Source: Xylanibacter ruminicola 23 (GTDB lineage: Bacteria > Bacteroidota > Bacteroidia > Bacteroidales > Bacteroidaceae). Taken from it: DNA of 32,000 nucleotides. The notes beneath the pieces are model-generated. The model was not told where the DNA came from. It saw only the letters and a program-made list of their open reading frames with translations, and did no database searches. Below are positions 832 to 17,683 of the stretch, piece after piece. The stretch is taken from positions 2,700,001-2,732,000 of the forward strand of contig NC_014033.1 in NCBI RefSeq assembly GCF_000025925.1, written 5' to 3'. Position 1 is the stretch's first letter. Each line of letters opens with the position of its first letter. A program made the translations under genes and the position numbers.

Positions 832-1524
832 TTACGGGTTATCCTTCGTTGGAATATGATCAACCCTCTCCAAACGGAAACCATAGCCCTTCTTCTTTTT
901 AGTAGGAGGAGTATCCGTGGACTTTGATGAACGCTTACGAGTCGACTTATTTCGGTTCACAGCTTTCGACTGCGGATTTTGCTGAGGCGTAACCTTCGGC
1001 TTTTCCGGCTCTGGTTCTGGCACAGAAACCTCAACTGGCTCAGGTTTAGGTTCCTCAACTATCGCTGGTTCTTCAACAGGTTCTGTAACCTCTTGTTCTG
1101 TTTCTGGTTCAGCAATAGTCTCAGGTTCTGCGACTGGTTCTGATTCCACTATTGTACTATCAGCAACAGCTTTTACCTGATGACCATCGTCATCAATTCC
1201 CATGCATGTACCGAGTCCCCAAAGTAAGGCAATGATGACGACAATACCAACAACCAGTATCAAGCATCCACGTTTTAGAAATTTTCCAAGTCCACCGAAC
1301 AGTGAAACGATGCCTGTACCCAGTGAGATTATTCCAGAGAGTCTTGGGAAAAACCTTGTAAGACTTGGCAATAGGGCGTTAAGTCCCGACAGGGCACTAC
1401 TGTTCCCAGCCTTATGCTTCGAGGTTCCACCTTTAGCTTTTTGTCTACGCTTCGGCTGATAGTTAGGATTGGGTTCAAAGTTGCTTTCCACCCAGAAACC
1501 CTGACCATTTTTATTCTCTTCCAT
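832..1524 (-). CDS. Hypothetical membrane protein with Glu-Pro / Lys-Pro low-complexity rod and basic tail (last gene of cassette A)
   Basis: ATG at 1524 (MEENKNGQGFW); the track start at 1557 is a TTG. Basic N-terminus, a Gly-rich amphipathic segment plus a strong hydrophobic helix (GCLILVVGIVVIIALLWGLG), then EPVAEPETIAEPETEQEVTEPVEEPAIVEEPKPEPVEVSVPEPEPEKPK and a K/R/S-rich tail. Starts 22 nt after the giant A stop. Confidence 0.7.
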   Translation of the reverse strand: MEENKNGQGFWVESNFEPNPNYQPKRRQKAKGGTSKHKAGNSSALSGLNALLPSLTRFFPRLSGIISLGTGIVSLFGGLGKFLKRGCLILVVGIVVIIALLWGLGTCMGIDDDGHQVKAVADSTIVESEPVAEPETIAEPETEQEVTEPVEEPAIVEEPKPEPVEVSVPEPEPEKPKVTPQQNPQSKAVNRNKSTRKRSSKSTDTPPTKKKKGYGFRLERVDHIPTKDNP

Positions 1525-1546
1525 ATAGAATCCTTTGTTTATACGT

Positions 1547-4500
1547 TTACTTTGCAATCTCCCAACTCTTAGCTGTAGTTATCCGCTTCATGCAGGCACC
1601 CATATCGTCAGCGAATTGGTAGAAACTATAGTTCATACTACGGAAAGCTCGCTGTATCTGGTCGATAGAGACCGTCGATCCAGCCTTGAACATATCCTCA
1701 ACCATCTCCACTGCCTCACGCATATGCTGCGGAATCATGCTTGTACCGTTGACTTTATAACGGGCAATATCATAGGGCTTGACGAAGTTGTTGAACTCTT
1801 TGGCCATCTGGCGCAGACCTTCCATATACTCGTTTACGGCCTCGCTCTGCACGAGCAGTCGTTCTGCTTCGTTGGTGATGGTTTCTGCCTCCTGTAGCAA
1901 CTTCTCTGCCGATTGAAAACGGTCATAACCCTTGAAGGTCATGGCATCACCCACCTTGGTTGGGTTAGTGAGTGCCTCACCATGACGACTCTTATCTGCA
2001 AGTTTCTCCCAATCGATGCCGAAACTCTCATTATCATGCAATACGTCTTGGATGACAGTCTGATCCTTACCCTTGGCATACCTGCCATATACCTCAGCAG
2101 ACGATGCAGACGAATCCGCAATCACATTCGATTTCGACGTGAAACGTCGAGTCGTCTCGTAGAAGTTGCGGTTATAGACTTCTACCACCTCTTCATGGGG
2201 CAGATAATGCGTCACATTGTTCTCGTCAACGAAATAATAAGTAATGTCACGGTCCATCGTAATGGTTTTGCCACTAGCCAGCATGTCAGCTTTCGACGAT
2301 GTGGCATTCATCACCTGTATCTTTCTGCCAGGATACTTCTTCGACAACTCCGCAATACTCTTGGCATCAGTAATCTCATAGATATTCTTCAAGGTGCCGT
2401 TCAATTCCTTGCGGACAACATCGTACTTCGAGCTGGCATTCTTCAACATATACATGGCTTGCTTATCGCCTTGTACCTCCAGAATCAGACGGTTCTTCAG
2501 AGCTACATTCGTCCATTCACCATTTTGTTCCGCCATCTCAATGGCAGCTCTCAGGTTCTTCACCTTCTCAGCAGCATTGGCACGTCCTGTCGCCATCGCT
2601 TTGTCGAGGTTCAAATCACCTGGCAAACGTGGCGCATTCTTGGCAGCATTCAGACGCATCTCCGCTACCGAAGAAGCACGACGCGTAGCCTCCAGGCTCT
2701 TCTCCGCCGACTCACGCAACAGCCAACCCTTTAAGGTGTTGTACGGCTTTTCGAAGCCCTTCTTGGCATTCTGTATAGCCTCACGCATACCTTGACGGGT
2801 AAGGTTCTTGGCCTTTATCGTGCTGGCGGCGCCAGTGGCACCCAGCACCATGAATGCACCGTTCTTGATGCCTATCCAGAACATCTTGAGCATGCTGTCG
2901 CCGTTCTTGTCGTAAACATACTCACGAATCTCTTCGGCAAAATCAACGGGCATAAAGATAAGTTCTGAGAGGCCCCAAGAGCCGACACCAGCAACAATAC
3001 GTCCAATAAAACCAATGTCTTTCTCCACCTGTTTTATGGCTTCGAACCACCACTCCAACTCATCCTTAATGCCTAACTCTGGTGGCAGTTCCTCGTCCAC
3101 GCCACCGATGTCACCCATGACCAAACGGGCATACGTGCTTCGGATACGATTAACGTTGCGCTTATCATAACCATAGGTAGCATCATAGCCTTCAATCTGC
3201 ATTTCGGTATATTTCACCAACGGGAACATGCGGTTCAATTGTCCTGTCTGGACGACTGACTCGATGATATGCATCAAGCGGTCGTAGGTATGTTGGTCTT
3301 CCTTCATGAAGGCCTCGGCACTATTCATATCCAGGACTTCACGACGAGGCTGCGATGCCAGACGTATAGCATGAGTACAAGTGTAGATCTTTGGCTCTGG
3401 ATTGTTCGGACCCTGATATTCCACCTTAATAATACACTCGGCATCAATACGGTTAGGCGCATCGAGCACACCCTTCAAACTACGAATGAGGCAGAGGCGT
3501 CCCTCGTCGCATCGGTCGGTCAGTGCTTCCATCTGCAGCCCCAACTTATCCACAAACTCCTGTTTCGACTCGTCCTTAGCCTTCACGGTAAATCCATCCT
3601 TGCGCAATGGAATAGGAGAAATCTTCAGCAGGGTGTTGCGAGAGATATCATAATCATAAAGCGTAAGAATAGCCTGATTCTCCTGCGACATATACTGCTT
3701 GCCACCAGCCTTGATACGTAGTTCCGGACGGGTGCGATGTTTCATCGGATCATACTTTGTGATGTAACAACCTATCTCACCCTTGTCCTTAAACTCCACC
3801 GCCAGGCCCATGTAAAAGCGCAGCACAGGCAATGTACCTTCAAGCTTGGTGCCACGATCGTTCTTTGCCTCCACATGAAGCGTATAGGTGAGGTACTGAC
3901 CTGGGATGCCCTCATCCTTTGCAGGATCTTTCACATTATCGAGAATACGCGCAAAATGATGTTTTTTCTGGTCATCCCAATAAACATCTACGCCATAGTC
4001 TCCTTCGTTTCCTTCACTATCTGTGATGTAGGCTGTTACGCCATTCTCACCCTCAAAGCCAGGAACGAGGAAAGGCAGTTCCAAAACAGACTCATACTGA
4101 GCGGGGATGGTCAGATTCTCCTGTCCGAACTGTATTTCGCCTTTTTCAATGCGGAAGTGAACACGGTTGGTATAAGTACCCCTATCAACAGAAAGGCGGA
4201 ACTTCACGACGCCCTCTTCGGGCGGATTATCATCCTGTGGGGCCGAAACGAAACACGAACGCCAACCATTTACCATACCATCGTCCTCCACTTCAAGGTA
4301 ATTATCAGCAGAAGTAATCTCGATTTGTCGGGTCAGATTCTCATCCACCCATTCGCCTCCCTTGGCAGGATGACGCACGATACAAGCACTAACGCGCTGT
4401 GCAACATCGCCACTTATCAATGTACCATCGAAGTCTTTGTAGAACTTCATCTCCAACTGGTCAGGTTCTTCTTCGTCATCATCTTCCTCGTCGTCATCAT

Positions 4501-5389
4501 TGTCATCCGAGTTGTCCTCGTCTTGTTGGTCTTTAGCGTTTGCTTTCCGTCTCTTTCTGAGTTTATTGATAAGATGAGTCAGGTAACCGATGATACCAGC
4601 ACCGACGGCAATAGGAATGGCTGTTCCCCACGGTCCTTTTTGATCAGGCGCATCCGTATCATCCTCTGCACTGGCTGTTATATCGCCTTCGCTGACTTTT
4701 ACTTCTTCAACTTCTCCAGAAATATAAAGATACTGACCGCTTAGTGCACCATCATATTCGCCCCACTTGTATTCTATTACATCTGGGTTATGATAATCTG
4801 CAAGGGTTGTACCTGTAAGAGGCTTACGCGTCAGCTTATCCCATTTCAGTCCAATATTAACAGAACCATTACTGGTGAAGCCTGCATTGATAAAAAAGCG
4901 GATAATACCAGCAGTTTCGAACCAAGGTTCCTGACTGGCAGACAACACATAGTCTTTTGTTGCTTTATATCCAGTCTCAGTGCCATCAATTTTTACGGCT
5001 ATATCAAAATGAAGGTTTGTAGGGCTAACCGTCACATTGCCGACGGGCAAGAGTGCGAAATGAGGAGAGCCACCATAAGTTGCGCGTTCCACCTTACACT
5101 TTCCTTTAACCGTGATGGCCGGGAGTTTAGCTGTATACACCTCATAATTGGTCTTTCTGGTAACTGTCTGGGCAGGAATGGTTATAATGAATTCATCATT
5201 CGTTGCCCAGAAATGAGCTTTCCCAGAAAAGCCTCCCCATCCCTCTCCGTCATTCACGTTGAACTCCTTCAGTTTGAAGTCCATATCAATCAGGGCTTTC
5301 TTTGAGTCGCCACTAGCCCATGCACCTAAGGGCATCAGGAGTGCCAATGCCGTCAGCAGGGTTTTGAGATATCTCCTAATTTGAGTCAT
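1547..5389 (-). CDS. Giant A: 1280-aa single-pass membrane protein, unknown family (paralogue of 7769-11797)
   Basis: Uninterrupted 3.8-kb ORF with an ATG start. Signal peptide MTQIRRYLKTLLTALALLMPLGAWASG, TM helix AIPIAVGAGIIGYLTHLI, then KLRKRRKANAK and DEDNSDDNDDDEEDDDEEE. About 1000 aa of C-terminal sequence align in many blocks with the second giant. Confidence 0.85.
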   Translation of the reverse strand: MTQIRRYLKTLLTALALLMPLGAWASGDSKKALIDMDFKLKEFNVNDGEGWGGFSGKAHFWATNDEFIITIPAQTVTRKTNYEVYTAKLPAITVKGKCKVERATYGGSPHFALLPVGNVTVSPTNLHFDIAVKIDGTETGYKATKDYVLSASQEPWFETAGIIRFFINAGFTSNGSVNIGLKWDKLTRKPLTGTTLADYHNPDVIEYKWGEYDGALSGQYLYISGEVEEVKVSEGDITASAEDDTDAPDQKGPWGTAIPIAVGAGIIGYLTHLINKLRKRRKANAKDQQDEDNSDDNDDDEEDDDEEEPDQLEMKFYKDFDGTLISGDVAQRVSACIVRHPAKGGEWVDENLTRQIEITSADNYLEVEDDGMVNGWRSCFVSAPQDDNPPEEGVVKFRLSVDRGTYTNRVHFRIEKGEIQFGQENLTIPAQYESVLELPFLVPGFEGENGVTAYITDSEGNEGDYGVDVYWDDQKKHHFARILDNVKDPAKDEGIPGQYLTYTLHVEAKNDRGTKLEGTLPVLRFYMGLAVEFKDKGEIGCYITKYDPMKHRTRPELRIKAGGKQYMSQENQAILTLYDYDISRNTLLKISPIPLRKDGFTVKAKDESKQEFVDKLGLQMEALTDRCDEGRLCLIRSLKGVLDAPNRIDAECIIKVEYQGPNNPEPKIYTCTHAIRLASQPRREVLDMNSAEAFMKEDQHTYDRLMHIIESVVQTGQLNRMFPLVKYTEMQIEGYDATYGYDKRNVNRIRSTYARLVMGDIGGVDEELPPELGIKDELEWWFEAIKQVEKDIGFIGRIVAGVGSWGLSELIFMPVDFAEEIREYVYDKNGDSMLKMFWIGIKNGAFMVLGATGAASTIKAKNLTRQGMREAIQNAKKGFEKPYNTLKGWLLRESAEKSLEATRRASSVAEMRLNAAKNAPRLPGDLNLDKAMATGRANAAEKVKNLRAAIEMAEQNGEWTNVALKNRLILEVQGDKQAMYMLKNASSKYDVVRKELNGTLKNIYEITDAKSIAELSKKYPGRKIQVMNATSSKADMLASGKTITMDRDITYYFVDENNVTHYLPHEEVVEVYNRNFYETTRRFTSKSNVIADSSASSAEVYGRYAKGKDQTVIQDVLHDNESFGIDWEKLADKSRHGEALTNPTKVGDAMTFKGYDRFQSAEKLLQEAETITNEAERLLVQSEAVNEYMEGLRQMAKEFNNFVKPYDIARYKVNGTSMIPQHMREAVEMVEDMFKAGSTVSIDQIQRAFRSMNYSFYQFADDMGACMKRITTAKSWEIAK

Positions 5390-5401
5390 AGCATAACGGT
5401 A

Positions 5402-5848
5402 TTATTCGGTTGCTTTATACATTTTCCATTGACTATGGGGCAATACCAAGAAGAAACCCTGCGTCTGGGTATTCTGTGGTCCCATCTCTCCATGCAATCC
5501 CACTTTCTTTGAACCTTGGGAAATCTGTGCAGGAGTGGCAATGGAGAATTTCAGGACGCCTTTTGTCTCAGCATTCAACTTCTTAACCATATTCTCTGCC
5601 TGCGTCCTTGTAACTTTTGCAGCCTTCGTGACACTGGTACCAGCAGAATGAGCCTTCGAGCCAGTGGCAGCCCAGTATTCATTATAAGTAACGGGGGTAG
5701 TAGTGATAGCATATTGAGTGCCAACAGGTCTCATACGAACAATCAGATTATACAGTGTTTTCTCACGCTGCTCTTCAGACATACCTTGAGCATTCACTGC
5801 TGTAACAATAGCAACAAGTGCTAATAATGTAATAACTAACTTTTTCAT
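5402..5848 (-). CDS. Small secreted protein (signal peptide ending VNAQ), unknown function
   Basis: ATG at 5848 (MKKLVITLLALVAIVTAVNAQ); the track start at 5878 is a TTG inside the upstream gene's end. Its stop lies 12 nt upstream of the giant A start. Confidence 0.7.
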   Translation of the reverse strand: MKKLVITLLALVAIVTAVNAQGMSEEQREKTLYNLIVRMRPVGTQYAITTTPVTYNEYWAATGSKAHSAGTSVTKAAKVTRTQAENMVKKLNAETKGVLKFSIATPAQISQGSKKVGLHGEMGPQNTQTQGFFLVLPHSQWKMYKATE

Positions 5849-5874
5849 AATATTTATAGTTTTATTTGTTAATA

Positions 5875-6417
5875 TCAATCACGTGGTCTTACAATCCAGA
5901 CTGGTTTCTCTGTAGTTTTCAGACTATCAGTTGCCGTTCTGGTAGAATATCTCCAACTATCATACCCCCAATGATAACCTGTGTAATTTGGACGACTAAC
6001 ATTATAAAGGTTGAATGCAACTTTATTCCCATGATCATAGATGTAACCTGAGAATCTGTTGTCGTCCAAGCGATAATCGCTAATCTGAATAGAGGTCCCT
6101 TCCTCGATGAATTTTACATAGATATCACCGAAATCTACTCTCCAGTCAATATGATTGGCCACATAATCCCACGGAGCATCGCTATAGTAATCTACCCAAT
6201 AGCCAGATCCACTCGAATATGCATACGGGTCTTTCAAAAAGGTAACCTCCGTATAAGTGGCATCATAGTATCTTCCATCCCACTCCGACGATATATACAT
6301 GTCACCTTTCCATGTTCCCTCAAGAGTTCTGGCAATTTCTTCATCATCGCATGAGGTGAGTGAGACCGCCATCAGTCCCAGCATTGCCATCAATAATCGA
6401 TTAAACTGTTTCTTCAT
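5875..6417 (-). CDS. Lipoprotein, lipocalin-like-domain type (tentative)
   Basis: Signal peptide plus lipobox (MAVSLTSC). The mature part starts ...LEGTWKGDMY, the GTW motif typical of Bacteroidota lipocalin-like lipoproteins, and is Tyr/Trp/Asp-rich and beta-like. Confidence 0.7.
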   Translation of the reverse strand: MKKQFNRLLMAMLGLMAVSLTSCDDEEIARTLEGTWKGDMYISSEWDGRYYDATYTEVTFLKDPYAYSSGSGYWVDYYSDAPWDYVANHIDWRVDFGDIYVKFIEEGTSIQISDYRLDDNRFSGYIYDHGNKVAFNLYNVSRPNYTGYHWGYDSWRYSTRTATDSLKTTEKPVWIVRPRD

Positions 6418-6442
6418 ATCTTTATAGTTTTTGGTTTGTTAT

Positions 6443-6979
6443 TCACTTGTCTGGCTCAACGGGTGGCTGATTCATGCCATTATGATCGTAGTAAAGCACA
6501 GTACCGCAGAGATCGCAATAGTTCTCGCCTGCAACCCCTTTATTATGGCAACATGCACAATCCAACTCATCACCAACTGCAGCTTTTGCATTATTCTTAC
6601 GGTGAACCGCCGGCACTGCCAAGGCTTTAGACAAGAAATACCACGCAAGCCACACTACCCAGAACGAGCAGAGAATCATACATATCTTCTCATACACACC
6701 TTCGTCATAATTATCTATCATATAAATGACGCTCAGAACGATTACTGCTGTGATGATGCTTCCGATGATGTATTTAAACAGGAAACGAACAAACGTAAAA
6801 TGGAATGGACCCAGACCTACATGGGGCGAGATACGCTTGTTGACGGGGTAGCTAAACTTACTGTGTTTGGCGGTTCCATTATATCGTGCACCACAATGCG
6901 GGCAGAATTTCTTCCCTAAATGAACACGCTTCCCGCAGTGCCAACAGAACATATTTCCATAACCGATGTATTTATGCAT
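6443..6979 (-). CDS. Zinc-ribbon membrane protein (first gene of cassette A)
   Basis: N-terminal CxxC-N10-CxxC (CWHCGKRVHLGKKFCPHCG) with no signal peptide. Two hydrophobic helices (IIGSIITAVIVLSVIYMI; ICMILCSFWVVWLAWYFL). C-terminal second Cys cluster CACCH...CDLCG. TATATTTG -7 box lies 24 nt upstream. Confidence 0.75.
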   Translation of the reverse strand: MHKYIGYGNMFCWHCGKRVHLGKKFCPHCGARYNGTAKHSKFSYPVNKRISPHVGLGPFHFTFVRFLFKYIIGSIITAVIVLSVIYMIDNYDEGVYEKICMILCSFWVVWLAWYFLSKALAVPAVHRKNNAKAAVGDELDCACCHNKGVAGENYCDLCGTVLYYDHNGMNQPPVEPDK

Positions 6980-7002
6980 AATAACTAGGTTTGTTTATTT
7001 CG

Positions 7003-7010
7003 CAAATATA
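7003..7010 (-). promoter_or_regulatory. Bacteroidota -7 promoter box (TATATTTG) for cassette A operon
   Basis: Exact match to TAnnTTTG on the minus strand, 24 nt upstream of the ATG at 6979. Confidence 0.5.
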
Positions 7011-7030
7011 GGGAAAAAGTCTGACTGCGT

Positions 7031-7082
7031 TACTTACAAAAATCGTAAAAAGACTATCAATTCTTGCATTGTAAGTCGTTTT
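7031..7082. repeat. 52-nt promoter-upstream element, copy L1 (degenerate hairpin; homologous to 14771-14822)
   Basis: Ungapped alignment with 14771-14822 gives 41/52 identical positions. It starts exactly 21 nt from the -7 box in both loci. Contains ACTTACAA and GACTATCAA 21 bp apart plus an inverted TTGTAAGTC. Confidence 0.75.
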
Positions 7083-7118
7083 AGCCCCATCATTATTGCT
7101 TTTCTTGGATATTAGCGG

Positions 7119-7126
7119 TAAATTTG
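7119..7126 (+). promoter_or_regulatory. Bacteroidota -7 promoter box (TAAATTTG) for cassette B operon
   Basis: Exact TAnnTTTG, 25 nt upstream of the ATG at 7151. Confidence 0.5.
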
Positions 7127-7150
7127 CGGAATAACTATAGGATTCACGAT

Positions 7151-7747
7151 ATGAATAAGATTTTTTGTTTTGCAACTGTTCTGCTAATGGCTTGCGGTCC
7201 TACCCCATCCCAGCAGATAACTAACGATGCCGCTAATATCGAAGAGGATGCCGTTAAACATCTTCATGCAGTATTAAATAGTGCCAAGGGACACATGATG
7301 AGCGCCACAGAACTGGCTCATCAAGACGGCTATCAAAACAATAGTGTTTTTGTTGTCAATATCCCTACCACGGATGCTGACGAACTTCCATTGTTTGACA
7401 CACCTTACATCGATGATGCAACAGGCAGCACTATCGTCTTCCATCAAGATACTATCAAGGGAGACACCATCTGCCCCATTGGCACAGCCGACCTTCGGAC
7501 AGTTATACATGATTGGGAGCAGCAAGCACCAGATACAACAATAAATTATCGTGTGCATGCTCGAGGTAATGGCCTTTACACCTTTTATAATATCAAGCAC
7601 AAAGGTTGCCATTGCCTGAATCACGACAAGCATCCCGATGGATTCCCAGAGTATGCAGAATGCATCGTCTGGATAAAGCCAGGCAGCAAGGAGCTCCTCA
7701 TTACCTGGGGCTACAAACGCTCAGAGAAAACCTATCATACAAAATAA
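7151..7747 (+). CDS. Lipoprotein, unknown family (paralogue of 12405-12971)
   Basis: ATG at 7151 (MNKIFCFATVLLMAC, lipobox). Shares TGS[TS]IVFHQ and Y.V..RG.GLYT[FL]YN blocks with the 12405-12971 lipoprotein. Confidence 0.8.
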   Translation: MNKIFCFATVLLMACGPTPSQQITNDAANIEEDAVKHLHAVLNSAKGHMMSATELAHQDGYQNNSVFVVNIPTTDADELPLFDTPYIDDATGSTIVFHQDTIKGDTICPIGTADLRTVIHDWEQQAPDTTINYRVHARGNGLYTFYNIKHKGCHCLNHDKHPDGFPEYAECIVWIKPGSKELLITWGYKRSEKTYHTK

Positions 7748-7768
7748 GAACTAAAAACACCTAAGACT

Positions 7769-10700
7769 ATGCTTAAAACAATATTCCAGAGACACCTAAT
7801 AGTTATTATAGCCCTTTTCTTTATTTCTGCTGCTATGGCTCAAGAAAAGGCTCATTGGGAACTGATAGATGTTGAGGTTCAGACTCCTCCGGCAAAATAT
7901 GAGTCAAGAGGATCGATGAGCCCTGACAATAATGTCGAGGTAACTTATCGTCTTAGCCGCGGTTCCATCTACATCCAGAAAAAAGTTGTTGAAAGATGTT
8001 TATCAAATTATAGAGACGACCCTGTCAAGCAAAAAAAATGGACTTTAGCACACGACCATAAAGGTGAGACCGCTACAGGACAGTTCATCATCAGTGGACT
8101 TCCAGAAAACATCTATGCTGATAAAGAGGTCGTCTTAAGAGTTTCTTTTACAGCCAACACCAGCTGCCCTCATGGAGATTTATTTGGTATCATAGCACAA
8201 ATCACAGCTATTGACGGCCTCAACAAAGCAAGCGTTAGAGGAAGTTCCAAAATACTTCCAACTTGTAATCAAGAAAAAAACGGGAATATTTCCGTAAGAG
8301 ATTATACGAATGCTATTTTGCGAAAATCTGGTGATTATGGAGAATGGAATGTACCATTTAATATACCTGGCGCACGTATGGATGGAGATCAGACATACCG
8401 ATATATAGGAATCGCTCTAGCAAGATCTTCTTGGGTTTCACAGCCCGAAACACCAATTGTATATTTCAAATACAAGTTCATAAAAGGTGAGAAAGCAAAG
8501 AACAATGACACCCCTACTGATGAAGACGACACGCCAGAATATATTCCACCCTATGAGGAAGATAACGATGCTTCTGACGAGGAAGGTATCTGGAAGTATA
8601 TCATACCGCCATTTGTTGCAGGTGGTCTGGTAGGCTGGTGGAGAAACCGCAAAAAGAAAAAGAAGCAGCAGAAGGATGATGATCCTGAACCAGAACCCGA
8701 AGAGGAGGAAAAGGAAGAGGAGGAAGATGATGAACCCGATCAGCTGCAGATGCAGGTATATAAAAACTTTGGCGATACACTACTTGTTGGTGATAAAGGT
8801 CAGCAGGTAAATGCCCTTATTGTCCGCAAGCCAAAGAAGGGTCCTGAATATGTGGATGAGAATCTGACTCGCCAGATTCAGATTATGAGCGGAGACGAAT
8901 ATCTGCACGTAGAGATGGGCGATATAGAAAACGGTTGGAAGACTGCCTACGTATGGGCACCGGAAGCAGAGAACCCACCTCAAGAGGGAATCGTGAAGTT
9001 CGTGTTGGCCAACGAAGGTGCCAGCTATACCAACCGCCTGCACTTTAAGGTAACCAAGGGTGAAATCATCTTTTTCCAAGAGAACCTTACGCTACCGGCA
9101 TGCTTCGGCCCTGAAGCAAGATTACCATTCTTAGTTAATGGCATTGAAAAAGAGAAAGCCAAGATAACTGCAGCTATCCTTGACATAGAGAATAAACCTA
9201 CCAACGACTACCGCATAGATGTGAAATGGGACGAAAAGAAACAATATTATTTAGCAAACATTAACGACCAACTTCAGGATAAAGAAAAAGACAAAGGTGT
9301 GCCTGGTACTTATGCTACATATGCTATCGAGATTGTTGCAGATAATCAGGACGGGGTTATTATTAAAGGATACCTGCCACTATACCGTTACTACATGGGC
9401 TTGGTATTGGATATTAATCCCAATGTTGCTTGCTATTTGGAGGAGCAGGATCCCATGCGCCACGAACTGCAGCTTCCAAAGGTAAATCGTGATGGCAAGG
9501 AATGCAGGCCAGCAGAGAACCGATGCACATTGAAGCTGTATGACTGGGATGATGAAACCAACGAACTGCTGGTTATTGATCCACGACCTGAGAATATTAT
9601 TTGGAATGTACGCGATGACGAGGGACTGCTAAAAATCGAACTTGATGAAGGTATGGACTTAGATAATTCTGTGGCAGAGCGCCGTCAACGTCTTATCGAA
9701 TACCAGAAGATGCTGGACGCTTTGGGCTTGCAGCTCCAGCCACGATACAATGAAACTGTTGGTCTGTACTATATGCTCTACTGTCGTACAGGTGTGCTAA
9801 ATGCGCCCAACCGCTTCGATGTGGAGTTTGAGATTAGTGCATCCTACCAACCCAAAGACCCCAAGAAACCGAAGATACAAAAATTCAAGCGTGTTGTTCA
9901 CCTACTATCTCAGCCAAAGCGCGAGTTCGCGAGCTACGAAGCAAGAGTGGAAGCAGTGAAACGTGAACGCAAGATAGAAGATGAACTGCGACAATTGGAG
10001 GATGATATCTATATGGCAGGATTAAATGATCGCCTGGCTCCCTTGTTGTTCTTCATTCGCCTGCAAATTGAATTCTATAAAGAAGAGTACGGTTTCTACG
10101 AACGCAATATCAAGGCCATTTACACCACATACCAGCACGTTATGGAAGGCGTTGGACAGGAGGCAATAGAGCGTGCTGAGGCCTGTGACGACCTGGAGCA
10201 GATGACATACGAATGGTTGGAGAGTGCTCACCAAACGATAGAAGACATGCCCCTTGCAGTACGCATTGGCATAGGTTTCGCAACACTGGGCAGTTCAGAG
10301 GCTGCTTTCATGTGTATTGAGGTTCCATACAGCATGAAGAAATATGTTGATGCGGGTGGAAATAGTGTTTACGAGATGTTTAAAGTTGGTGTTACGCCAG
10401 TAGTCAAAGCTTATCTTTTCGAGAACACCTTTAAAGCTGCAGCTTCCGCAGTCAAAATATTCGGAGGTGGAGCCATTAAAGGCGCAAAAGGTTTAGGGAA
10501 AATGGCATGGAATGGCACTATGTCGAGAAAAGCAGTAACGGAGTTTGGTACGCAACTTGGCAAAGGCATGTTAAACGAAGTGAGCACAGGACTGAAGGCT
10601 TGGACAAAAACACAGTTTGGCTGGCAGGTAGGCATGGCAGAAAAGGCTGCAAGGAAATCGGCATTAAGCCTGCTAGAAGAAGGTAAGCAAATAGCTAAGG

Positions 10701-11797
10701 GGAGCCGCTTCAATGCTGCTGAATTATATGGCAAGAATCGTGCTACCCGCAATATACAAGACCTGATGGCGGCAGTAGAGCTATACGACAGTTGTCCTTC
10801 GGTTGAGAATTTCCTGTTGCGTAACAGGATGATTAAAGCATGTCAGGGTGACAAGCGCACCATGTTTATGCTCAAGAATACAGAGCAGCTACTTGCCAAT
10901 CAAAATAATAAGGCGATAGGCAATCTGCTTATCAACAATACGCGAATGCAATTCAACAAGACACTAAAAGGAGTCTACTCACAAGCCGGTAAAGAGTCTA
11001 TCAAAGAACTGGCTAAAGAAACGGGTATTAACCCCGCCATGATCAGAATCAAGAATGCCACGTCATCGAACATCGACGACCTACTGTCAGGAAAGACCGT
11101 AACTTTCGACAACGACATCACATTCTATTATATAGACAAAAATGGCGTAACGAGGTATTTCGATCAAAAGCTGACGGAAAGAATATACAACGCGAAATTC
11201 CGCGAGGCGTTAAATGCCATAACACTACCTAAGAATGCCGCTGGTATAGGCATCAAACCTACAGCTGCACAACTTTTGAAAACTCAAGAACTGGCTGACC
11301 GTTTGGCCAAACACATGGACCAGACAGTAATTGAGGACATTCTGAAACATCATGAGAGTTATGGTGTGGATCTGGAGAAAATGATTGTTAAGGCACTGCA
11401 TGGCGAGGGGCTAAGTAATCCTAAGAAGGTGGCCGATGCTGTATTGCACAAGGGGTTAGACCGCTTCAATTATGCTGCAAAACTTATTAATGCTGCTGAT
11501 GAAATTACAGATAATATACTCAAAAACGAGCTGAAGGCTACAGCTATTGGTGAGATTATGGAGGGTTGTCGCCAACAAGTAAAAGTATTCAAACTGATAG
11601 AGTCGCGCGATATTATGCGGAACTTCACGAGTAAGATTCCCACTAAACTTCGCGAGGCAATAGCCGTTATGGAAGAGATGACATCCAAGGGCAATGCATC
11701 GCTCGGTGAAGTGGAATATGCGTTGCAGCAGTTAGGCTATAATTCGTTTGAGAGCGTCACAAAAGCCGTGTCTGACTTAGTCATAAAAGTAGGATAG
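7769..11797 (+). CDS. Giant B: 1342-aa single-pass membrane protein, unknown family (paralogue of 1547-5389)
   Basis: Uninterrupted 4-kb ORF. Signal peptide MLKTIFQRHLIVIIALFFISAAMAQE, TM IIPPFVAGGLVGWW, then RNRKKKKKQQK and DDDPEPEPEEEEKEEEEDDE. The cytoplasmic region aligns block-wise with giant A. Confidence 0.9.
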   Translation: MLKTIFQRHLIVIIALFFISAAMAQEKAHWELIDVEVQTPPAKYESRGSMSPDNNVEVTYRLSRGSIYIQKKVVERCLSNYRDDPVKQKKWTLAHDHKGETATGQFIISGLPENIYADKEVVLRVSFTANTSCPHGDLFGIIAQITAIDGLNKASVRGSSKILPTCNQEKNGNISVRDYTNAILRKSGDYGEWNVPFNIPGARMDGDQTYRYIGIALARSSWVSQPETPIVYFKYKFIKGEKAKNNDTPTDEDDTPEYIPPYEEDNDASDEEGIWKYIIPPFVAGGLVGWWRNRKKKKKQQKDDDPEPEPEEEEKEEEEDDEPDQLQMQVYKNFGDTLLVGDKGQQVNALIVRKPKKGPEYVDENLTRQIQIMSGDEYLHVEMGDIENGWKTAYVWAPEAENPPQEGIVKFVLANEGASYTNRLHFKVTKGEIIFFQENLTLPACFGPEARLPFLVNGIEKEKAKITAAILDIENKPTNDYRIDVKWDEKKQYYLANINDQLQDKEKDKGVPGTYATYAIEIVADNQDGVIIKGYLPLYRYYMGLVLDINPNVACYLEEQDPMRHELQLPKVNRDGKECRPAENRCTLKLYDWDDETNELLVIDPRPENIIWNVRDDEGLLKIELDEGMDLDNSVAERRQRLIEYQKMLDALGLQLQPRYNETVGLYYMLYCRTGVLNAPNRFDVEFEISASYQPKDPKKPKIQKFKRVVHLLSQPKREFASYEARVEAVKRERKIEDELRQLEDDIYMAGLNDRLAPLLFFIRLQIEFYKEEYGFYERNIKAIYTTYQHVMEGVGQEAIERAEACDDLEQMTYEWLESAHQTIEDMPLAVRIGIGFATLGSSEAAFMCIEVPYSMKKYVDAGGNSVYEMFKVGVTPVVKAYLFENTFKAAASAVKIFGGGAIKGAKGLGKMAWNGTMSRKAVTEFGTQLGKGMLNEVSTGLKAWTKTQFGWQVGMAEKAARKSALSLLEEGKQIAKGSRFNAAELYGKNRATRNIQDLMAAVELYDSCPSVENFLLRNRMIKACQGDKRTMFMLKNTEQLLANQNNKAIGNLLINNTRMQFNKTLKGVYSQAGKESIKELAKETGINPAMIRIKNATSSNIDDLLSGKTVTFDNDITFYYIDKNGVTRYFDQKLTERIYNAKFREALNAITLPKNAAGIGIKPTAAQLLKTQELADRLAKHMDQTVIEDILKHHESYGVDLEKMIVKALHGEGLSNPKKVADAVLHKGLDRFNYAAKLINAADEITDNILKNELKATAIGEIMEGCRQQVKVFKLIESRDIMRNFTSKIPTKLREAIAVMEEMTSKGNASLGEVEYALQQLGYNSFESVTKAVSDLVIKVG

Positions 11798-11817
11798 TAC
11801 ATTAAAAATAGCATAAT

Positions 11818-12426
11818 ATGAGCGAAGATATTAAAAATGGTATTAAGTTATGCCCAGATGGCAAGTACCGTTGGGCCTATGAGGTAAATATGTATCGGAA
11901 CCCAACCATCTTCTATGTGATAGCAAACATGTTCCTGATCTGCTATCTGGTATGCGTTGTGCTCTTCTCGGTCATCAATTTCTGCTTGGACGAGGAGGTG
12001 CTATCATCCATACTGATGTTGACGGGTGTGTTTTTGTTCCTCTTCCTGATCACCATTCCAGCCTATCTGGTTATTGCAGCCATCATGGGAGGCACCTATG
12101 CCGCCCTGTTTGTGATGGACGAAAATGGTATTGAGCACCATCAGATGCCCAAGAAAGTTAAGAAACTTCAGCTGATCAATACCATTGGCGGTTGGATGGG
12201 AGCAGCCAAGGGCGACCTGAGCATGGTGGGACTATCCCTCTTTTCATCTGGTGTACAAGTCACCAAGACAGATTTCAAGAATGTTCGTTTAGTAAAGACA
12301 GCCCCTCGCCGCAATCTTATCAAGCTCACAGAGGCATGGTACAGTTGGAACCACATCTATGTGGATGAAGAGGATTACGACTGGGTTTGCCAATACATCA
12401 AAGATCACTGCCCAACGGCATCATAA
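11818..12426 (+). CDS. Two-TM membrane protein with C-terminal soluble domain, unknown function (last gene of cassette B)
   Basis: ATG 20 nt after the giant B stop. Two long hydrophobic helices (IFYVIANMFLICYLVCVVLFSVINF; ILMLTGVFLFLFLITIPAYLVIAAIMGG) followed by a ~90-aa hydrophilic tail. Confidence 0.75.
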   Translation: MSEDIKNGIKLCPDGKYRWAYEVNMYRNPTIFYVIANMFLICYLVCVVLFSVINFCLDEEVLSSILMLTGVFLFLFLITIPAYLVIAAIMGGTYAALFVMDENGIEHHQMPKKVKKLQLINTIGGWMGAAKGDLSMVGLSLFSSGVQVTKTDFKNVRLVKTAPRRNLIKLTEAWYSWNHIYVDEEDYDWVCQYIKDHCPTAS

Positions 12427-12971
12427 TCTGTAGCAGTTCTAAAGAAAGTCTGCTGTGTTTCCTGGCTACCACGAGTAACAATAATACTATCAGCACCAGG
12501 AAACACATATACTAATCGTCCTTCAAAACGAGCTTCCTCATTATTATATAAGGTATAGAGGCCTTTTCCGCGAGATTGCACTACATATTGTGCAGTACCC
12601 TCCAAACTGTCAGCAGGCATACCCCAATGATTCTCTCGCAAAGCAATGGTTACGGTAACACTTGAGCCGTTCTGATGGAACACAATACTACTACCTGTAG
12701 AGGAGGAAACATAAAGTTGACCAGTTTTAGGCAACGCGTTTTCATCTGTAAGCGGCAAATGAATTTCGCAACCAGCCCCTCGCAACTTATCAGCAAAACC
12801 AGGCGTCATCTCAGCCAGCTGGTCAGCTGTCATCTTCTGTCCCTCTTCACTATTTAAGAGCGTCTCTAACTCATTCTGCGCATTAACATACGACGGATGA
12901 CAGGCTGTTAGGATAGTACTAACAACCAATAACATCGTGATTAATTCAAGTAATTGATAAAAATTCTTCAT
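12405..12971 (-). CDS. Lipoprotein, unknown family (paralogue of 7151-7747)
   Basis: Lipobox (VVSTILTAC). Its ATG overlaps the upstream stop by 1 nt (TAATG at 12969-12973). Shares motifs with the 7151 lipoprotein. Its 3-prime end overlaps the convergent gene 11818-12426 by 22 nt. Confidence 0.8.
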   Translation of the reverse strand: MKNFYQLLELITMLLVVSTILTACHPSYVNAQNELETLLNSEEGQKMTADQLAEMTPGFADKLRGAGCEIHLPLTDENALPKTGQLYVSSSTGSSIVFHQNGSSVTVTIALRENHWGMPADSLEGTAQYVVQSRGKGLYTLYNNEEARFEGRLVYVFPGADSIIVTRGSQETQQTFFRTATDYDAVGQ

Positions 12972-14293
12972 TAGTTCAATATAAATTTATCTGTGGCACC
13001 AGCAGAAGATACTAGGATAGTATGACCATTATCGAGTACCACCACATGGCAGCGTACAAATTCATCGTCCTTCTTTGTTAACGAGTAAGCACTATGACCG
13101 AACGACTTGACAACATAATTTTCGGTGAGGTTGATAGTACCGCGATAGATGTGCTGAGCTGTACCAGTGATTGTGCCATTACTATGTTCTTTTACATCGA
13201 AAATCCATCTCTGAGAGTCTCTATCAGTATATAATTTCCCCGGCAACTTATTTACATCAATACATTTCACCGAGTTGTCCCATGCACCGTCTTGACCAGC
13301 ATAAAAGCCATCGTGAGCATAGTTATTCTTCATGCGACAGCCACTAGCATCTACATAATAAAATTTACCGCCATCCTTTATCCATATACTATGGGCATAG
13401 GTACCACTTGGATAGATATAGACCGTCTCACCTGATTGCAGTGTTTCCCATTTACCTTTATCCGATCCTGCCGTGATGGCATAGCGTGCTGGTGTATAGC
13501 TGGGATCGGTACTGCTGACAGCCTCTGAGAAACTCTCGGCAGATTGGAATATCACCTCTACACCTTTGCTTGATATACGTACCTTCTCTGCGCCAGGATA
13601 GATATAGAGCTCAGCATCGGGAGTCATTCCATCCGACTTATAAAGCGTAAAGTGCCCCTTACCTGAGGGGCTTATCTTCACGATATCATGTCCCTTAGTA
13701 TCGTCTGTTGAGAAATAAACGACATATACAGGTTCGGAACTACTCTCACTTTTGGCAAAACCAATCTTTGTATTAAGTTCTCTGTTGATATACTCCTTCC
13801 CAATAGGGAGTGTTTCTTCACCATTCTCTTCTGAAGCTTCACTATCCTTAGATAAGGATACACCTGAAACACCTACAATATTAATAGTATCCTCTGGAGT
13901 TTCAATGCTGTCTAAGATGCCCCTGCTTTCTTTTTCATCATCCTGATAAAACAGGTAGGCCATAATTCCACTACAGACTAGGAAAGCAACCAACAGAACC
14001 AAACACCCTTTGAGCATGCACCCCCTCGACAAAGAACCAGGAGTGCTACTACGCTCAACATACTTACTCTTTGGTTTGGGCTCTGACGACTGCGAGGCGG
14101 GACGAGGCTCATATGGTGGAGGTACAGATCCTCTATGTTCGCGCTTTGGTTGTTTAGGCGATTCCTCATCAGGTTCAAGGTCGAACACAAGAGGAGGAGG
14201 TGTTGACCGTCTTACATCCATACGGGCACCACAACCACCACAGAATTTCACATTGTCATCATTGGAATGACCACACTTTTCACAAATTGCCAT
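12971..14293 (-). CDS. Zinc-ribbon - Pro-rich linker - TM - exported domain protein
   Basis: N-terminal CEKCG...FCGGCG zinc ribbon, Pro/Ser-rich linker, TM GCLVLLVAFLVCSGIMAYLFY, and a ~320-aa exported part. The exported part contains a copy of the lipoprotein domain (SPSGKGHFTLYKSDG...LYIYPGAEKVRISSKG) and one cell-wall-binding-repeat-like stretch (WIKDGGKFYYVDASGCRM). Confidence 0.8.
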   Translation of the reverse strand: MAICEKCGHSNDDNVKFCGGCGARMDVRRSTPPPLVFDLEPDEESPKQPKREHRGSVPPPYEPRPASQSSEPKPKSKYVERSSTPGSLSRGCMLKGCLVLLVAFLVCSGIMAYLFYQDDEKESRGILDSIETPEDTINIVGVSGVSLSKDSEASEENGEETLPIGKEYINRELNTKIGFAKSESSSEPVYVVYFSTDDTKGHDIVKISPSGKGHFTLYKSDGMTPDAELYIYPGAEKVRISSKGVEVIFQSAESFSEAVSSTDPSYTPARYAITAGSDKGKWETLQSGETVYIYPSGTYAHSIWIKDGGKFYYVDASGCRMKNNYAHDGFYAGQDGAWDNSVKCIDVNKLPGKLYTDRDSQRWIFDVKEHSNGTITGTAQHIYRGTINLTENYVVKSFGHSAYSLTKKDDEFVRCHVVVLDNGHTILVSSAGATDKFILN

Positions 14294-14312
14294 AAGTTAT
14301 AGCATTTTATAA

Positions 14313-14720
14313 TCAATCTTTTGTGTTGACATTAAACACAGACTCTGTCTCAGAAGAAGAGTTGTTATTCTTCTTGTTATTGGAAGTTTTCTTTTCGAGC
14401 AGTTTCTTTTTTACTGCTTTATCTGCTTCTTTGCGATCAATTTTAGACAATGATTTCTTTGAAATCTCATCTATTGCTTGCGCTCTGATCTTGTCAGCTT
14501 CCTTCTTTTCACTAACAGTGACAGAGTATTTATACTCACCGAGATTGTCGCCATTAGAATTAGTCCAGATTTTCACACCATTCTTAATGGTGGTGTGAAC
14601 CCCAGGAGCCTTATCGTTAACCACATACTTATATACAAGCGCTCTTTCTTTGAGCGATTGGGCATTAACACCAGCTACAAAAGCCATCAAGGTCGCCACA
14701 CATAATAGAATCTTTTTCAT
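14313..14720 (-). CDS. Small secreted Lys-rich protein (signal peptide ending VNAQ), first gene of cassette C
   Basis: ATG at 14720 (MKKILLCVATLMAFVAGVNAQ); alternative ATGs at 14726 and 14729. TATCTTTG box at 14743-14750. C-terminal K/N/S low-complexity region. Confidence 0.65.
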   Translation of the reverse strand: MKKILLCVATLMAFVAGVNAQSLKERALVYKYVVNDKAPGVHTTIKNGVKIWTNSNGDNLGEYKYSVTVSEKKEADKIRAQAIDEISKKSLSKIDRKEADKAVKKKLLEKKTSNNKKNNNSSSETESVFNVNTKD

Positions 14721-14742
14721 AAGCATCATATTTTTTGTGGGG

Positions 14743-14750
14743 CAAAGATA
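14743..14750 (-). promoter_or_regulatory. Bacteroidota -7 promoter box (TATCTTTG) for cassette C operon
   Basis: Exact TAnnTTTG on the minus strand, just upstream of the 14720-14729 ATGs. Confidence 0.5.
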
Positions 14751-14770
14751 GCCATAATAGCCCATAAAGC

Positions 14771-14822
14771 GACTATCAAAAATTGCAAAACGACTGACAA
14801 TTCTTGTTTTGTCAGTCGTTTT
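14771..14822. repeat. 52-nt promoter-upstream element, copy L2 (homologous to 7031-7082)
   Basis: 41/52 identity with L1 in the same orientation and the same 21-nt distance from the -7 box. GACTATCAA (14771) and GACTGACAA (14792) are direct repeats 21 bp apart, with an inverted TTGTCAGTC at 14809. Confidence 0.75.
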
Positions 14823-14824
14823 GC
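14785..14824 (-). terminator. Rho-independent terminator of the AraC-type gene (perfect 16-bp stem, 8-nt loop)
   Basis: GCAAAACGACTGACAA-ttcttgtt-TTGTCAGTCGTTTTGC. On the minus strand it is followed by AATTTTTGA. The stem overlaps the regulator's TGA stop (14812-14814). Confidence 0.75.
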
Positions 14825-16491: not shown

Positions 16492-16508
16492 CTGATAGGT
16501 TTTGGTTG

Positions 16509-16516
16509 CAAAGATA
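16509..16516 (-). promoter_or_regulatory. -7 promoter box (TATCTTTG) for the AraC-type gene
   Basis: Exact TAnnTTTG on the minus strand, 18 nt upstream of the ATG at 16491. Confidence 0.45.
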
Positions 16517-16580
16517 CGAAATAATTCCATATCTGAACAAAAAAGGAAAGATTTTCTTTTGTCCTGAGAATGTTTTTTTG

Positions 16581-16588
16581 TATCTTTG
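16581..16588 (+). promoter_or_regulatory. -7 promoter box (TATCTTTG) for the DUF59-lpxH operon
   Basis: Exact TAnnTTTG; only 8 nt separate it from the ATG at 16597. Confidence 0.45.
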
Positions 16589-16596
16589 CAGCGATT

Positions 16597-16917
16597 ATGA
16601 CACAAGAAGAGAAGACACAGATAGAAGAGCGGATTGTAGATGTACTGAAGACCGTTTACGATCCCGAGATTCCCGTCAACATCTACGACCTGGGAATGAT
16701 TTACAAGATAGATGTACAGGACGACAGTTCTGTTGAGTTGGACATGACCTTTACAGCCCCCAACTGCCCTGCTGCAGATTTTATCCTTGAGGATGTCCGC
16801 ACCAAGGTAGAGAGTGTGGATGGCGTAAAGGGAGCCAATGTTAATCTCGTGTTCGAACCCGCTTGGGATCAGAGTATGATGAGCGAAGAAGCGAGAGTTG
16901 AACTTGGATTCGATTAA
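16597..16917 (+). CDS. DUF59/MIP18-family Fe-S cluster assembly protein (SufT-like)
   Basis: MTQEEKTQIEERIVDVLKTVYDPEIPVNIYDLGMIY...MTFTAPNCPA matches the DUF59 signature. Start moved to the ATG at 16597, downstream of the promoter box. Confidence 0.85.
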   Translation: MTQEEKTQIEERIVDVLKTVYDPEIPVNIYDLGMIYKIDVQDDSSVELDMTFTAPNCPAADFILEDVRTKVESVDGVKGANVNLVFEPAWDQSMMSEEARVELGFD

Positions 16918-16918
16918 T

Positions 16919-17683
16919 ATGAAGAACGTATATTTCCTTTCCGATGCCCACTTGGGCTCGTTAGCCATTCCGCACCAGCGCATGCAGGAACGCCGACTGG
17001 TTCGCTTTCTCGATAGCATCAAGGAGAAGGCAGCAGCCATCTATCTGTTGGGCGACATGTTCGACTTCTGGTACGAATATAAATATGTGGTTCCCAAGGG
17101 CTACACCCGTTTCTTAGGCAAACTCTCGGAACTCACCGACATGGGTGTCGAGGTACATTACTTTACCGGCAACCACGACATCTGGGCCTACGAGTATCTG
17201 GAAAAGGAGTGCGGGGTGATTCTGCATAAGAAACCCGAGACGACTGAGATATACGGAAAGATGTTCTTCCTGGCACATGGCGACGGACTGGGTGATCCTG
17301 ATAAGAAGTTCAAGCTTATCAAGAGTATCTTCCACAACAAGGTCTGCCAGTGGGCCTTCTCGTCATTACATCCCCGTTGGGGCATGTGGTTTGGATTAAA
17401 CTGGGCCAAGCACAGTCGTATGAAGCGTCCTAACGGCGAAGAGCCTGCCTATATGGGCGAGAACCGCGAGCATCTGGTACTGTTTACCAAAAAGTACATC
17501 CAGTACCACTCTAACGTAGATTATTTCATCTACGGTCATCGTCACATCGAAGTAGATCTGCAGCTCACCAAGAAAGCCCGCATGATTATCTTAGGCGACT
17601 GGATCAGTCAGTTCTCTTATGTGATGTTTGATGGCGAACACCTGCTCCTTTCGCAATACATCGAAGGCGAAAGCCGCCCATGA
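16919..17683 (+). CDS. lpxH: UDP-2,3-diacylglucosamine diphosphatase (calcineurin-like metallophosphoesterase)
   Basis: Motifs FLSDAHLG, LLGDMFDFW, GNHD and AHGDG. The ATG at 16919 lies 1 nt after the upstream stop. Confidence 0.85.
   Translation: MKNVYFLSDAHLGSLAIPHQRMQERRLVRFLDSIKEKAAAIYLLGDMFDFWYEYKYVVPKGYTRFLGKLSELTDMGVEVHYFTGNHDIWAYEYLEKECGVILHKKPETTEIYGKMFFLAHGDGLGDPDKKFKLIKSIFHNKVCQWAFSSLHPRWGMWFGLNWAKHSRMKRPNGEEPAYMGENREHLVLFTKKYIQYHSNVDYFIYGHRHIEVDLQLTKKARMIILGDWISQFSYVMFDGEHLLLSQYIEGESRP

Follow-up and report, generated by a model that had tools for sequence, protein, structure and literature searches.

A putative co-regulated inner-membrane system built around two giant, unannotated Bacteroidales proteins in Xylanibacter ruminicola 23

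Introduction

Xylanibacter ruminicola 23 carries, within a 32,000-nucleotide (nt) stretch of contig NC_014033.1 (positions 2,700,001–2,732,000; this whole stretch is called the window below, and coordinates refer to it), a locus of eleven tightly packed genes in three cassettes, together with the gene of an AraC-type regulator. We tentatively read this locus as a co-regulated four-unit regulon that would encode an undescribed Bacteroidales inner-membrane complex, most likely one for inducible surveillance, and we hold this reading with a little less than even confidence. Two of the genes encode giant proteins of a family of about 750 clusters, whose 1,200–1,500-residue members lack annotation and a Pfam model. 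Bacteroidales dominate gut and rumen communities, and the partner set, the dedicated membrane-bound regulator and the precise operator described here give what was a set of hypothetical proteins the form of a regulon that can be tested.

Locus architecture

The open reading frame (ORF) listing of the window resolves the eleven genes into cassette A on the minus strand (A_ZnR, A_lipo, A_small, giant A and A_tail), cassette B on the plus strand (B_lipo, giant B and B_tail) and cassette C, again on the minus strand (C_small, C_ZnR and C_lipo). An earlier, sequence-only reading of this DNA had proposed these ORFs, strands and three cassettes, and the listing bears it out. Intergenic spacing inside the cassettes runs from −1 to ~26 nt, matching the 1-nt overlaps to about 25 nt given before. 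Hydropathy and N-terminal sequences reveal signal peptides, three lipoboxes and transmembrane (TM) helices among the products, in keeping with the claim that all of them are membrane-bound or exported. The borders had also been described as free of integrase, transposase and tRNA genes: no transposase was found there, and no tRNA, integrase or Rfam match within or beside the locus, which is flanked by radC and DUF59/lpxH-like genes. The right border has to move, as the AraC-type gene that had been taken for it (14812–16491, minus strand) belongs to the locus itself. On the left, an inverted repeat (20 nt with a 2-nt loop) at 816–857, between the radC stop codon and the end of cassette A, is likely a bidirectional terminator and the border of the locus. 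The G+C content dips to 0.41–0.45 in the locus, against 0.47–0.51 in the flanks.

For comparison, 35 loci (cited by L numbers) were fetched and mapped with hidden Markov models (HMMs) built from the window proteins and their neighbours.

A shared operator and a membrane-bound regulator

The regulator comprises 559 residues, with a signal peptide, a predicted periplasmic Kelch propeller, a TM helix and a cytoplasmic AraC-type helix-turn-helix (HTH). The HTH scores 66.1 bits against HTH_18 (cut-off 33.6) and 37.5 bits against HTH_AraC (cut-off 26.6), which places the protein among AraC/XylS regulators. The mechanically called 742-residue ORF (14812–17040) is over-extended; orthologue alignment and a TATCTTTG box just upstream set the real start at 16491. 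The 183 surplus codons run across both the divergent promoter region and a DUF59-like gene on the plus strand. Homologues of the regulator flank giant loci L004, L010, L011, L012, L016, L018, L019 and L026.

Each cassette has a −7 promoter box of the form TAnnTTTG. The boxes were found by eye and by regular expression; a sigma-70 scanner was left unused, as the Bacteroidetes promoter consensus differs. They read TATATTTG for cassette A (7003–7010, minus strand; invariant in six related loci), TAAATTTG for cassette B (7119–7126, plus strand) and TATCTTTG for cassette C (14743–14750, minus strand). Between the divergent A and B promoters lies an operator-like imperfect palindrome, AAAAAGACTATCAA-N8-TTGTAAGTCGTTTT (7047–7082), and a perfect inverted pair of the 14-nt motif TTGTCAGTCGTTTT, with an 8-nt spacer, spans the AraC stop codon (14787–14822). 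The 14-nt motif TTGTMAGTCGTTTT has exactly three copies in the 32-kb window, against 0.44 expected with two mismatches allowed; the third copy (7069–7082) pairs with a degenerate partner at 7047–7060. The palindrome centre stands 54.5 nt from the −7 box in cassettes A, B and C alike. No gene that could need termination lies upstream of the A/B palindrome, so its role is not simply that of a terminator.

The motif occupies the same places in L008, L012, L018 and L019. In L012, L011, L004 and L026 the AraC gene is followed by a palindrome whose half-sites are related but have diverged, 53.5–54.5 nt from the next −7 box, and this design holds down to 43% AraC identity and with a different downstream cassette (LemA–DUF2207). 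The sequence makes a strong case for one regulon spanning the three cassettes. Because adjacency and spacing are conserved, we infer that the AraC-type protein would bind the shared palindrome.

ToxR-like proteins are membrane-bound one-component regulators, and Bacteroides hybrid two-component systems combine periplasmic propellers with an AraC output. The regulator would resemble both in its periplasmic β-propeller sensor, TM helix, cytoplasmic AraC HTH and adjacent target genes. It differs in lacking a kinase or receiver domain and in having a propeller of the Kelch type.

A 16-nt inverted repeat (7103–7118/7230–7245, 15 of 16 positions complementary) flanks a segment that holds the cassette B −7 box and about the first 31 codons of B_lipo. 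It is degraded in L008 and L012, and its left arm is missing in L017 and L018. An invertible promoter was considered and rejected: conservation of the repeat is lacking, and five related assemblies contain no inverted form.

Topology and fold of the giants

Both giants open with a cleavable signal peptide and a head of ~230–240 residues, followed by a TM helix, a Lys/Arg run, an acidic linker and a body of ~1,000 residues. In giant A (1,280 residues; 1547–5389, minus strand) a periplasmic head of ~230 residues precedes the TM helix (residues 256–274), and a linker that is first basic and then acidic leads into a cytoplasmic body of ~960 residues. Giant B (1,342 residues; 7769–11797, plus strand) has its head at residues 25–260 and its TM helix at residues 276–293. 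Homologues P0012 and P0013 begin with a Zn-ribbon and an additional TM helix ahead of the head, so the head should be periplasmic and the body cytoplasmic. The giants are predicted to be bitopic inner-membrane proteins, with ~75% of each lying in the cytoplasm under this topology.

AlphaFold2 modelled the body with a predicted local distance difference test score (pLDDT) of 74.6, as four immunoglobulin (Ig)-like sandwiches, then a stretch of amphipathic, Gly-rich and weakly hydrophobic helices modelled at low confidence, and lastly a C-terminal domain modelled with confidence. In giant B these correspond to residues ~325–715, ~720–950 and ~957–1342, respectively. Modelled by itself, the C-terminal domain is helical/beta and reaches a pLDDT of 80.0 and a predicted template modelling score (pTM) of 0.78. 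Foldseek matched the whole cytoplasmic model to generic tandem-Ig proteins only, and for the C-terminal domain model it returned no significant match in PDB or BFVD (nothing at E < 0.04). Sequence and profile searches of PDB with the giant, the giant profile and the C-terminal segment profile were empty. This domain, the most conserved of the giants and without a structural relative, is a candidate new fold or enzyme.

Residues that never vary across the family are a DxD pair, two Lys, two Arg and several Gly/Pro, and the DxD...K...K set would form a pocket in the C-terminal domain. The family-wide motif reads h-x-h-x-N-[AV]-[ST]-[GS]-N, then ~10 residues, then G-x5-D-x-D-h-[TS], with a conserved DQ[ST] downstream of the DxD. 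Giant B carries it as NATSS-x10-GK-TVTFDNDIT, with the codons of the DxD (D1114, D1116) at 11108–11116 on the plus strand. In the AlphaFold2 model the motif sits on a strand-helix-strand hairpin and the DQ[ST] on a further strand.

Nucleotidyltransferases of the Pol-β type share the signature hG[GS]-x9-13-DhD plus a third acidic residue. The [ST][GS]N...DxD part of the giant motif recalls hG[GS]...DhD, with order and spacing only approximately canonical, and the C-terminal domain might on this basis be a divergent member acting at the membrane to synthesise or transfer a nucleotide signal, a specific form of the sensor-effector idea discussed below. The modelled hairpin and further strand, together with invariant Lys and conserved Arg residues downstream, are consistent with such an enzyme. 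We nevertheless consider it improbable: no nucleotidyltransferase is among the Foldseek matches listed in PDB and BFVD, neither a relaxed Pfam scan (E ≤ 5, 25 diverse segments) nor the PDB profile search gave such a family, the predicted sheet is very small, and the resemblance is one of pattern only. The nucleotidyltransferase and HAD-like (DxDxT) readings of the motif were both set aside for want of fold or profile support.

The exact C-terminus is the dipeptide I-G in most family members examined (P0003, P0009, P0012–P0014); giant B ends in V-G (11792–11794).

Size and distribution of the giant family

A word-indexed homology search gave 14 relatives of the giants, and a second, with a divergent alignment as query, was unproductive (3 matches). 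In a HMMER profile search, 748 clusters passed E ≤ 1e-3 and 226 passed E ≤ 1e-30. Nearly all members have 1,150–1,600 residues, a variable N-terminus and a conserved core. Among 31 long, divergent members Pfam recognises nothing but a Zn-ribbon at the N-terminus, seen in 8 of them; by motif, the ribbon is present in 14 of 133 full-length members. The distant orthologue P0009 has the same head type as giant A.

The named members, from Bacteroides heparinolyticus, Porphyromonas macacae and a Bacteroidaceae metagenome-assembled genome, are all annotated as 'hypothetical protein'; since the first two species are on record, cultured carriers exist. Genome matches all come from uncultured rumen or gut Bacteroidales, the closest being Prevotella sp. 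RUG116 (98%). The loci are patchy, multi-copy and placed at varying chromosomal sites. By these searches the family appears large, unannotated and restricted to Bacteroidales.

Partner genes and their linkage to the giants

Scans of the eleven proteins against Pfam, NCBIfam, PADLOC and PHROGs gave just the Zn-ribbon, low-complexity TonB-like matches and a sub-threshold choline-binding repeat. The ribbon (PF13240, cut-off 25 bits) scores 29.6 bits in A_ZnR and 27.4 bits in C_ZnR, above the threshold in both, and its N-terminal CxxC...CxxC precedes a TM helix in each. A_ZnR (6443–6979, minus strand) has two TM helices and a second CxxC...CxxC at its C-terminus. In C_ZnR (12971–14293, minus strand) the TM helix (residues 97–115) leads into a predicted periplasmic ectodomain of ~340 residues, ECTO340, which bears the choline-binding-like repeat.

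Linkage was counted in a representative set of 20 giant loci from uncultured Bacteroidales. In 18 of the 20 the giant either carries a fused Zn-ribbon or has one encoded no more than 5 kb away, and ribbon-motif ORFs are concentrated near giants (22/157 within 5 kb versus 1/77 farther away; Fisher p = 0.0017). The family of B_tail (11818–12426, plus strand; DGKYRWxYE motif, two TM helices and a cytoplasmic C-domain), termed TAIL_B, lies beside the giant in 13 of the 20, the most distant loci included, where TAIL_B itself opens with an N-terminal Zn-ribbon. With 690 clusters, all from Bacteroidia, TAIL_B has a size and range similar to those of the giant family. Within Prevotellaceae, the families LIPO_BC, ECTO340, F272, F173 and ZNR263 recur beside giants. 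LIPO_BC, the family of B_lipo (7151–7747, plus strand; lipobox LMAC), is found in the window and in L001, L004, L007, L008, L011, L012, L017–L019, L021 and L034, and ECTO340 is a separate gene next to a ZnR gene in L004 and L011. No partner family proved related to the giant heads, the HMMs giving no matches except the Zn-ribbon.

The accessory genes of cassette A, with the exception of A_lipo, are kept in close relatives only. A_small (5402–5878, minus strand, start probably 5848) encodes a secreted protein of ~125 residues once cleaved at VNA/Q and is kept in L008, L018 and L019, with a weaker relative in L016; C_small (14313–14729, minus strand, start 14729 or 14720) is likewise secreted. 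A_tail (832–1557, minus strand, start probably 1524), 99.6% identical to its orthologue in L008, resembles TonB and TolA in having an N-terminal TM helix and a Pro/Glu-rich rod, here followed by a basic tail. Unlike TonB, it has no TonB C-terminal domain: the match is confined to the Pro-rich linker and scores 29 bits where the cut-off is 315. The window ORFs include no ExbB/ExbD or TolQ/R genes. In L007 a true TonB_C protein occupies the place equivalent to A_tail.

The sequence-only reading had asked whether giants elsewhere keep the same partners, and the counts answer this in part. Zn-ribbon and TAIL_B proteins accompany giants widely, and LIPO_BC and the C_ZnR ectodomain recur; small secreted proteins are not consistent across loci, and their listing as regular partners does not hold. 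The view of the locus as a multi-component envelope machine survives in so far as a linked membrane system with a shared operator is concerned. As a description, 'envelope machine' goes too far: the giants are largely cytoplasmic, no energizing or secretion component was found, and some loci have the accessory module but lack a giant.

Most of the 'repeated parts' lack sequence homology (see below), as would be expected if hypothetical membrane proteins with nothing in common had come together by chance. We find that reading hardly credible, because linkage is kept over ~20 independent loci, domains are fused, an operator is shared and the genes are under purifying selection. Genomic comparison supports a linked, multi-component membrane system.

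Other giant-locus neighbours include LemA and DUF2207 genes (L004, L007 and L012), a TonB_C protein, caspase+Sel1, papain-like C1+DUF4384, FGE-sulfatase lipoproteins, VWA and DUF805.

Several observations on individual partners stand apart. A_lipo (5875–6417, minus strand; lipobox LTSC followed by DDEE, no family found in the scans) is a small lipoprotein of unusual conservation: it is 82% identical in L007 (3378–3929), though the giants of the two loci share only 29% identity, with a synonymous substitution rate (dS) of 0.68 and a ratio of nonsynonymous to synonymous rates (dN/dS) of 0.11. The 3′ ends of the convergent genes B_tail and C_lipo (12405–12971, minus strand) share 22 nt (12405–12426), and the identical overlap is kept in L008 and L012. 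Lipoprotein-type peptide deformylases adjoin distant giants in L022 (10966–11577) and L025 (2005–2637), with a signal peptide with Cys and a PF01327 match at E ~1e-34; an exported deformylase is unusual. In L007 a polytopic, Gly-rich protein of 1,223 residues without a Pfam hit directly follows the giant (10377–14048). It was rejected as a second giant of that locus, being polytopic and without a significant match to the giant profile.

Homology among the repeated parts

The sequence-only reading held that the locus uses the same five part-types twice. This stands for the giants and for the B and C lipoproteins and fails for the Zn-ribbon, small, A_lipo and tail parts. Giants A and B share 35% identity over ~1,100 residues (E 4e-180), the match running from the TM helix onward; their heads (the first ~240 residues) are unrelated. 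B_lipo and C_lipo share 26% identity (E 2e-21), as the earlier claim that they are paralogous would have it. On this evidence the giants are true paralogues, and the B and C lipoproteins are paralogues. Comparison gave no homology between A_lipo and B_lipo or between A_tail and B_tail. The match between A_ZnR and C_ZnR is confined to the ~24-residue ribbon, and that between A_small and C_small lies mainly in the signal peptide. The shared '...VNAQ' ending follows the general Bacteroidetes Q-rule for signal-peptidase I substrates (PMC5837995) and is therefore not a family signature of the small proteins. Because most matching parts share just a ribbon, a signal peptide or a TM helix, the recurrence in the locus is best read as one of topology classes, not of duplicated cassettes.

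Selection and allele shuffling

Values of dN/dS range from 0.03 to 0.06 for giant bodies, from 0.08 to 0.15 for accessory genes and from 0.18 to 0.39 for giant heads; in giant A the body stands at 0.03 and the head at 0.28–0.39. Since dN/dS shows purifying selection throughout, all are functional genes, the heads being about ten times less constrained than the bodies.

Alleles of giant B are mosaic. Residues 1–430 are 96–100% identical to the allele of L018/L019 and 68–98% to that of L008; beyond residue 430, identity to the L008, L018 and L019 alleles falls to ~30%. The L012 allele is 96–100% identical from residue 260 and has an unrelated head. Because giant B is mosaic while the genes flanking these alleles stay 84–99% identical, we conclude that heads and bodies are exchanged as modules among close strains. 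Co-evolution of head and lipoprotein was examined and rejected, given that A_lipo is 82% identical where the giant is at 29% and B_lipo is 84% identical beside an unrelated head.

Modular, shuffled alleles next to arrays of small periplasmic lipoproteins and secreted proteins also recall interbacterial antagonism, in which the giants would act as polymorphic toxins or as scaffolds for their delivery, and the small proteins would confer immunity. A weak, non-significant Foldseek resemblance to the alpha-pore-forming toxins AhlB and SmhB (E 1.5–2.1) points the same way. Several findings make this very improbable. The predicted topology leaves the body in the producer's cytoplasm, and no secretion system, Rhs, contact-dependent inhibition (CDI) or type VI or type IX secretion (T6SS/T9SS) signal was found. 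Variation lies in the head and in the body as a whole rather than in a C-terminal tip, and the hallmarks of a polymorphic toxin (delivery domain, variable C-terminal tip and co-varying immunity gene) were not found in the locus. There were no toxin-family hits either. The elongated helical bundle with a hydrophobic head that marks ClyA/Hbl/AhlB toxins drew no significant structural match, AhlB and SmhB coming up at a probability of 0.04–0.06 only, and among 25 segments in the relaxed Pfam scan a single one gave a 0.038 hit, to Bacillus_HBL. Finally, swaps of the giant body are not matched by changes in any partner gene, B_tail being 92–94% identical beside either type, a result that also counts against the surveillance reading discussed below.

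Proposed role

In the mechanism that we propose, the Kelch–TM–AraC protein would sense a periplasmic cue and activate the three cassettes via the shared palindromic operator. The products would assemble at the inner membrane, with the lipoproteins, the small secreted proteins and the wall-binding-like ectodomain on the periplasmic side and the Zn-ribbons, the B-tail protein and the giant bodies on the cytoplasmic side. The giant would pass an envelope event detected by its head to the C-terminal domain, which would bind a ligand or catalyse a reaction. Physical assembly, the pairing of regulator and operator, the direction of signalling and the biological role are all steps that we infer. The role is most likely envelope surveillance against phage or periplasm-acting toxins rather than housekeeping, which we favour because alleles are shuffled, heads evolve fast, distribution is patchy and multi-copy, and neighbours elsewhere are of the conflict type (caspase+Sel1, C1+DUF4384, FGE-sulfatase lipoprotein and VWA). 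If so, the family would represent a new architecture for bacterial envelope immunity.

A number of results weigh against surveillance. The dN/dS of the heads is below 1, and the purifying selection on the body is strong and would be explained just as well by a housekeeping role. No known defence or toxin domain turned up among the eleven proteins in Pfam, NCBIfam, PADLOC or PHROGs; in PADLOC-DB v2 the only hits were PD-T4-6 at 24.6 bits, to the Pro-rich linker of A_tail, and one of 12.8 bits to A_small, with none for the giants. The loci are set among housekeeping genes without an integrase. Searches of IMG/VR, PLSDB and INPHARED found no phage, viral or plasmid relatives of the giants, and with no integrase or transposase at the borders the locus does not look like mobile-element, prophage or plasmid cargo. 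Giants and accessory module can each occur alone. In L031 and L032 giants stand nearly alone among housekeeping genes, and L034, from Muribaculaceae, has a ZnR–LIPO_BC–F272–TAIL_B–LIPO_BC–ECTO340 cluster (4176–9505) with no giant within 7 kb, so the accessory module can stand by itself; L035 likewise has ZnR and TAIL_B only, and no giant.

Much of this evidence would suit an envelope-homeostasis or stress scaffold that maintains or repairs the inner membrane or ties it to the wall, in the manner proposed for stress modules of the Psp-like or LemA/DUF2207 type, allele diversity being a by-product of recombination between paralogues. Besides the low dN/dS of the bodies, the chromosomal housekeeping context and the want of mobile-element context and known defence domains, this alternative gains from the LemA and DUF2207 genes inside L004, L007 and L012; a DUF2207 mutant of S. 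mutans is stress-sensitive (PMC10457818). The TonB-like linker protein, the choline-binding-like ectodomain, the recurrent amphipathic helical F272 family and control by a periplasm-sensing regulator agree with it as well. It accounts poorly for the patchy distribution and differing genomic positions, for body alleles that are 70% different within otherwise 96–100% identical loci, and for multiple paralogues with variable neighbour sets; LemA and DUF2207 are moreover not in the window. We regard homeostasis as rather unlikely, yet as a serious rival of surveillance; if it were true, the family would reveal a lineage-specific membrane-maintenance device.

A narrower form of the surveillance reading would make the giants a new class of membrane-anchored immune sensor-effectors, peculiar to Bacteroidales of gut and rumen. 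Their hypervariable periplasmic head would recognise an invader at the envelope and an Ig stalk would relay the signal to a novel-fold DxD...K...K catalytic domain, served by Zn-ribbon adaptors, the set being switched on by the AraC-type protein. In this specific form we hold the idea to be doubtful.

Comparison with known systems

The surveillance reading finds its closest parallel in the Zn-ribbon-anchored, membrane-proximal conflict systems (DO-GTPase/GAP1, vWA-MoxR) of Kaur, Burroughs, Iyer and Aravind (eLife 2020, PMC7159879). Shared features are N-terminal Zn-ribbons with TM helices, variable wall- or ligand-binding ectodomains, FGE-sulfatase, caspase and vWA partners (at giant loci elsewhere), and diversification with paralogue expansion. 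However, by the family scans the locus lacks a GTPase, MoxR ATPase, STAND NTPase or recognised effector domain, the giant has no detectable relative in those systems, and it ranges over Bacteroidales, whereas that paper stresses multicellular lineages.

The LemA–DUF2207 pairs lie directly downstream of the same AraC gene and operator in L012 and L004. They are bitopic or polytopic membrane proteins, as are proteins of the locus; unlike these, they are not in the window, and no window protein is homologous to them. Literature searches on LemA/DUF2207 and on caspase/FGE-sulfatase/Zn-ribbon contexts turned up no description of this system, and no described system matches the locus.

In L012, the closest strain, where the giant B body is 96–100% identical, the region 5411–11381 has an altered cassette C, composed of AraC, LemA, DUF2207, a 277-residue ZnR protein, a 177-residue small protein and a lipoprotein. 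The same operator is kept upstream.

Other features of the window

To the right of the locus, the plus-strand DUF59-like gene (16570–16917) overlaps the start of a calcineurin-like phosphoesterase ORF (16898–17683). The sole RNA gene of the window, tRNA-Pro(CGG), lies far from the locus at 31196–31270.

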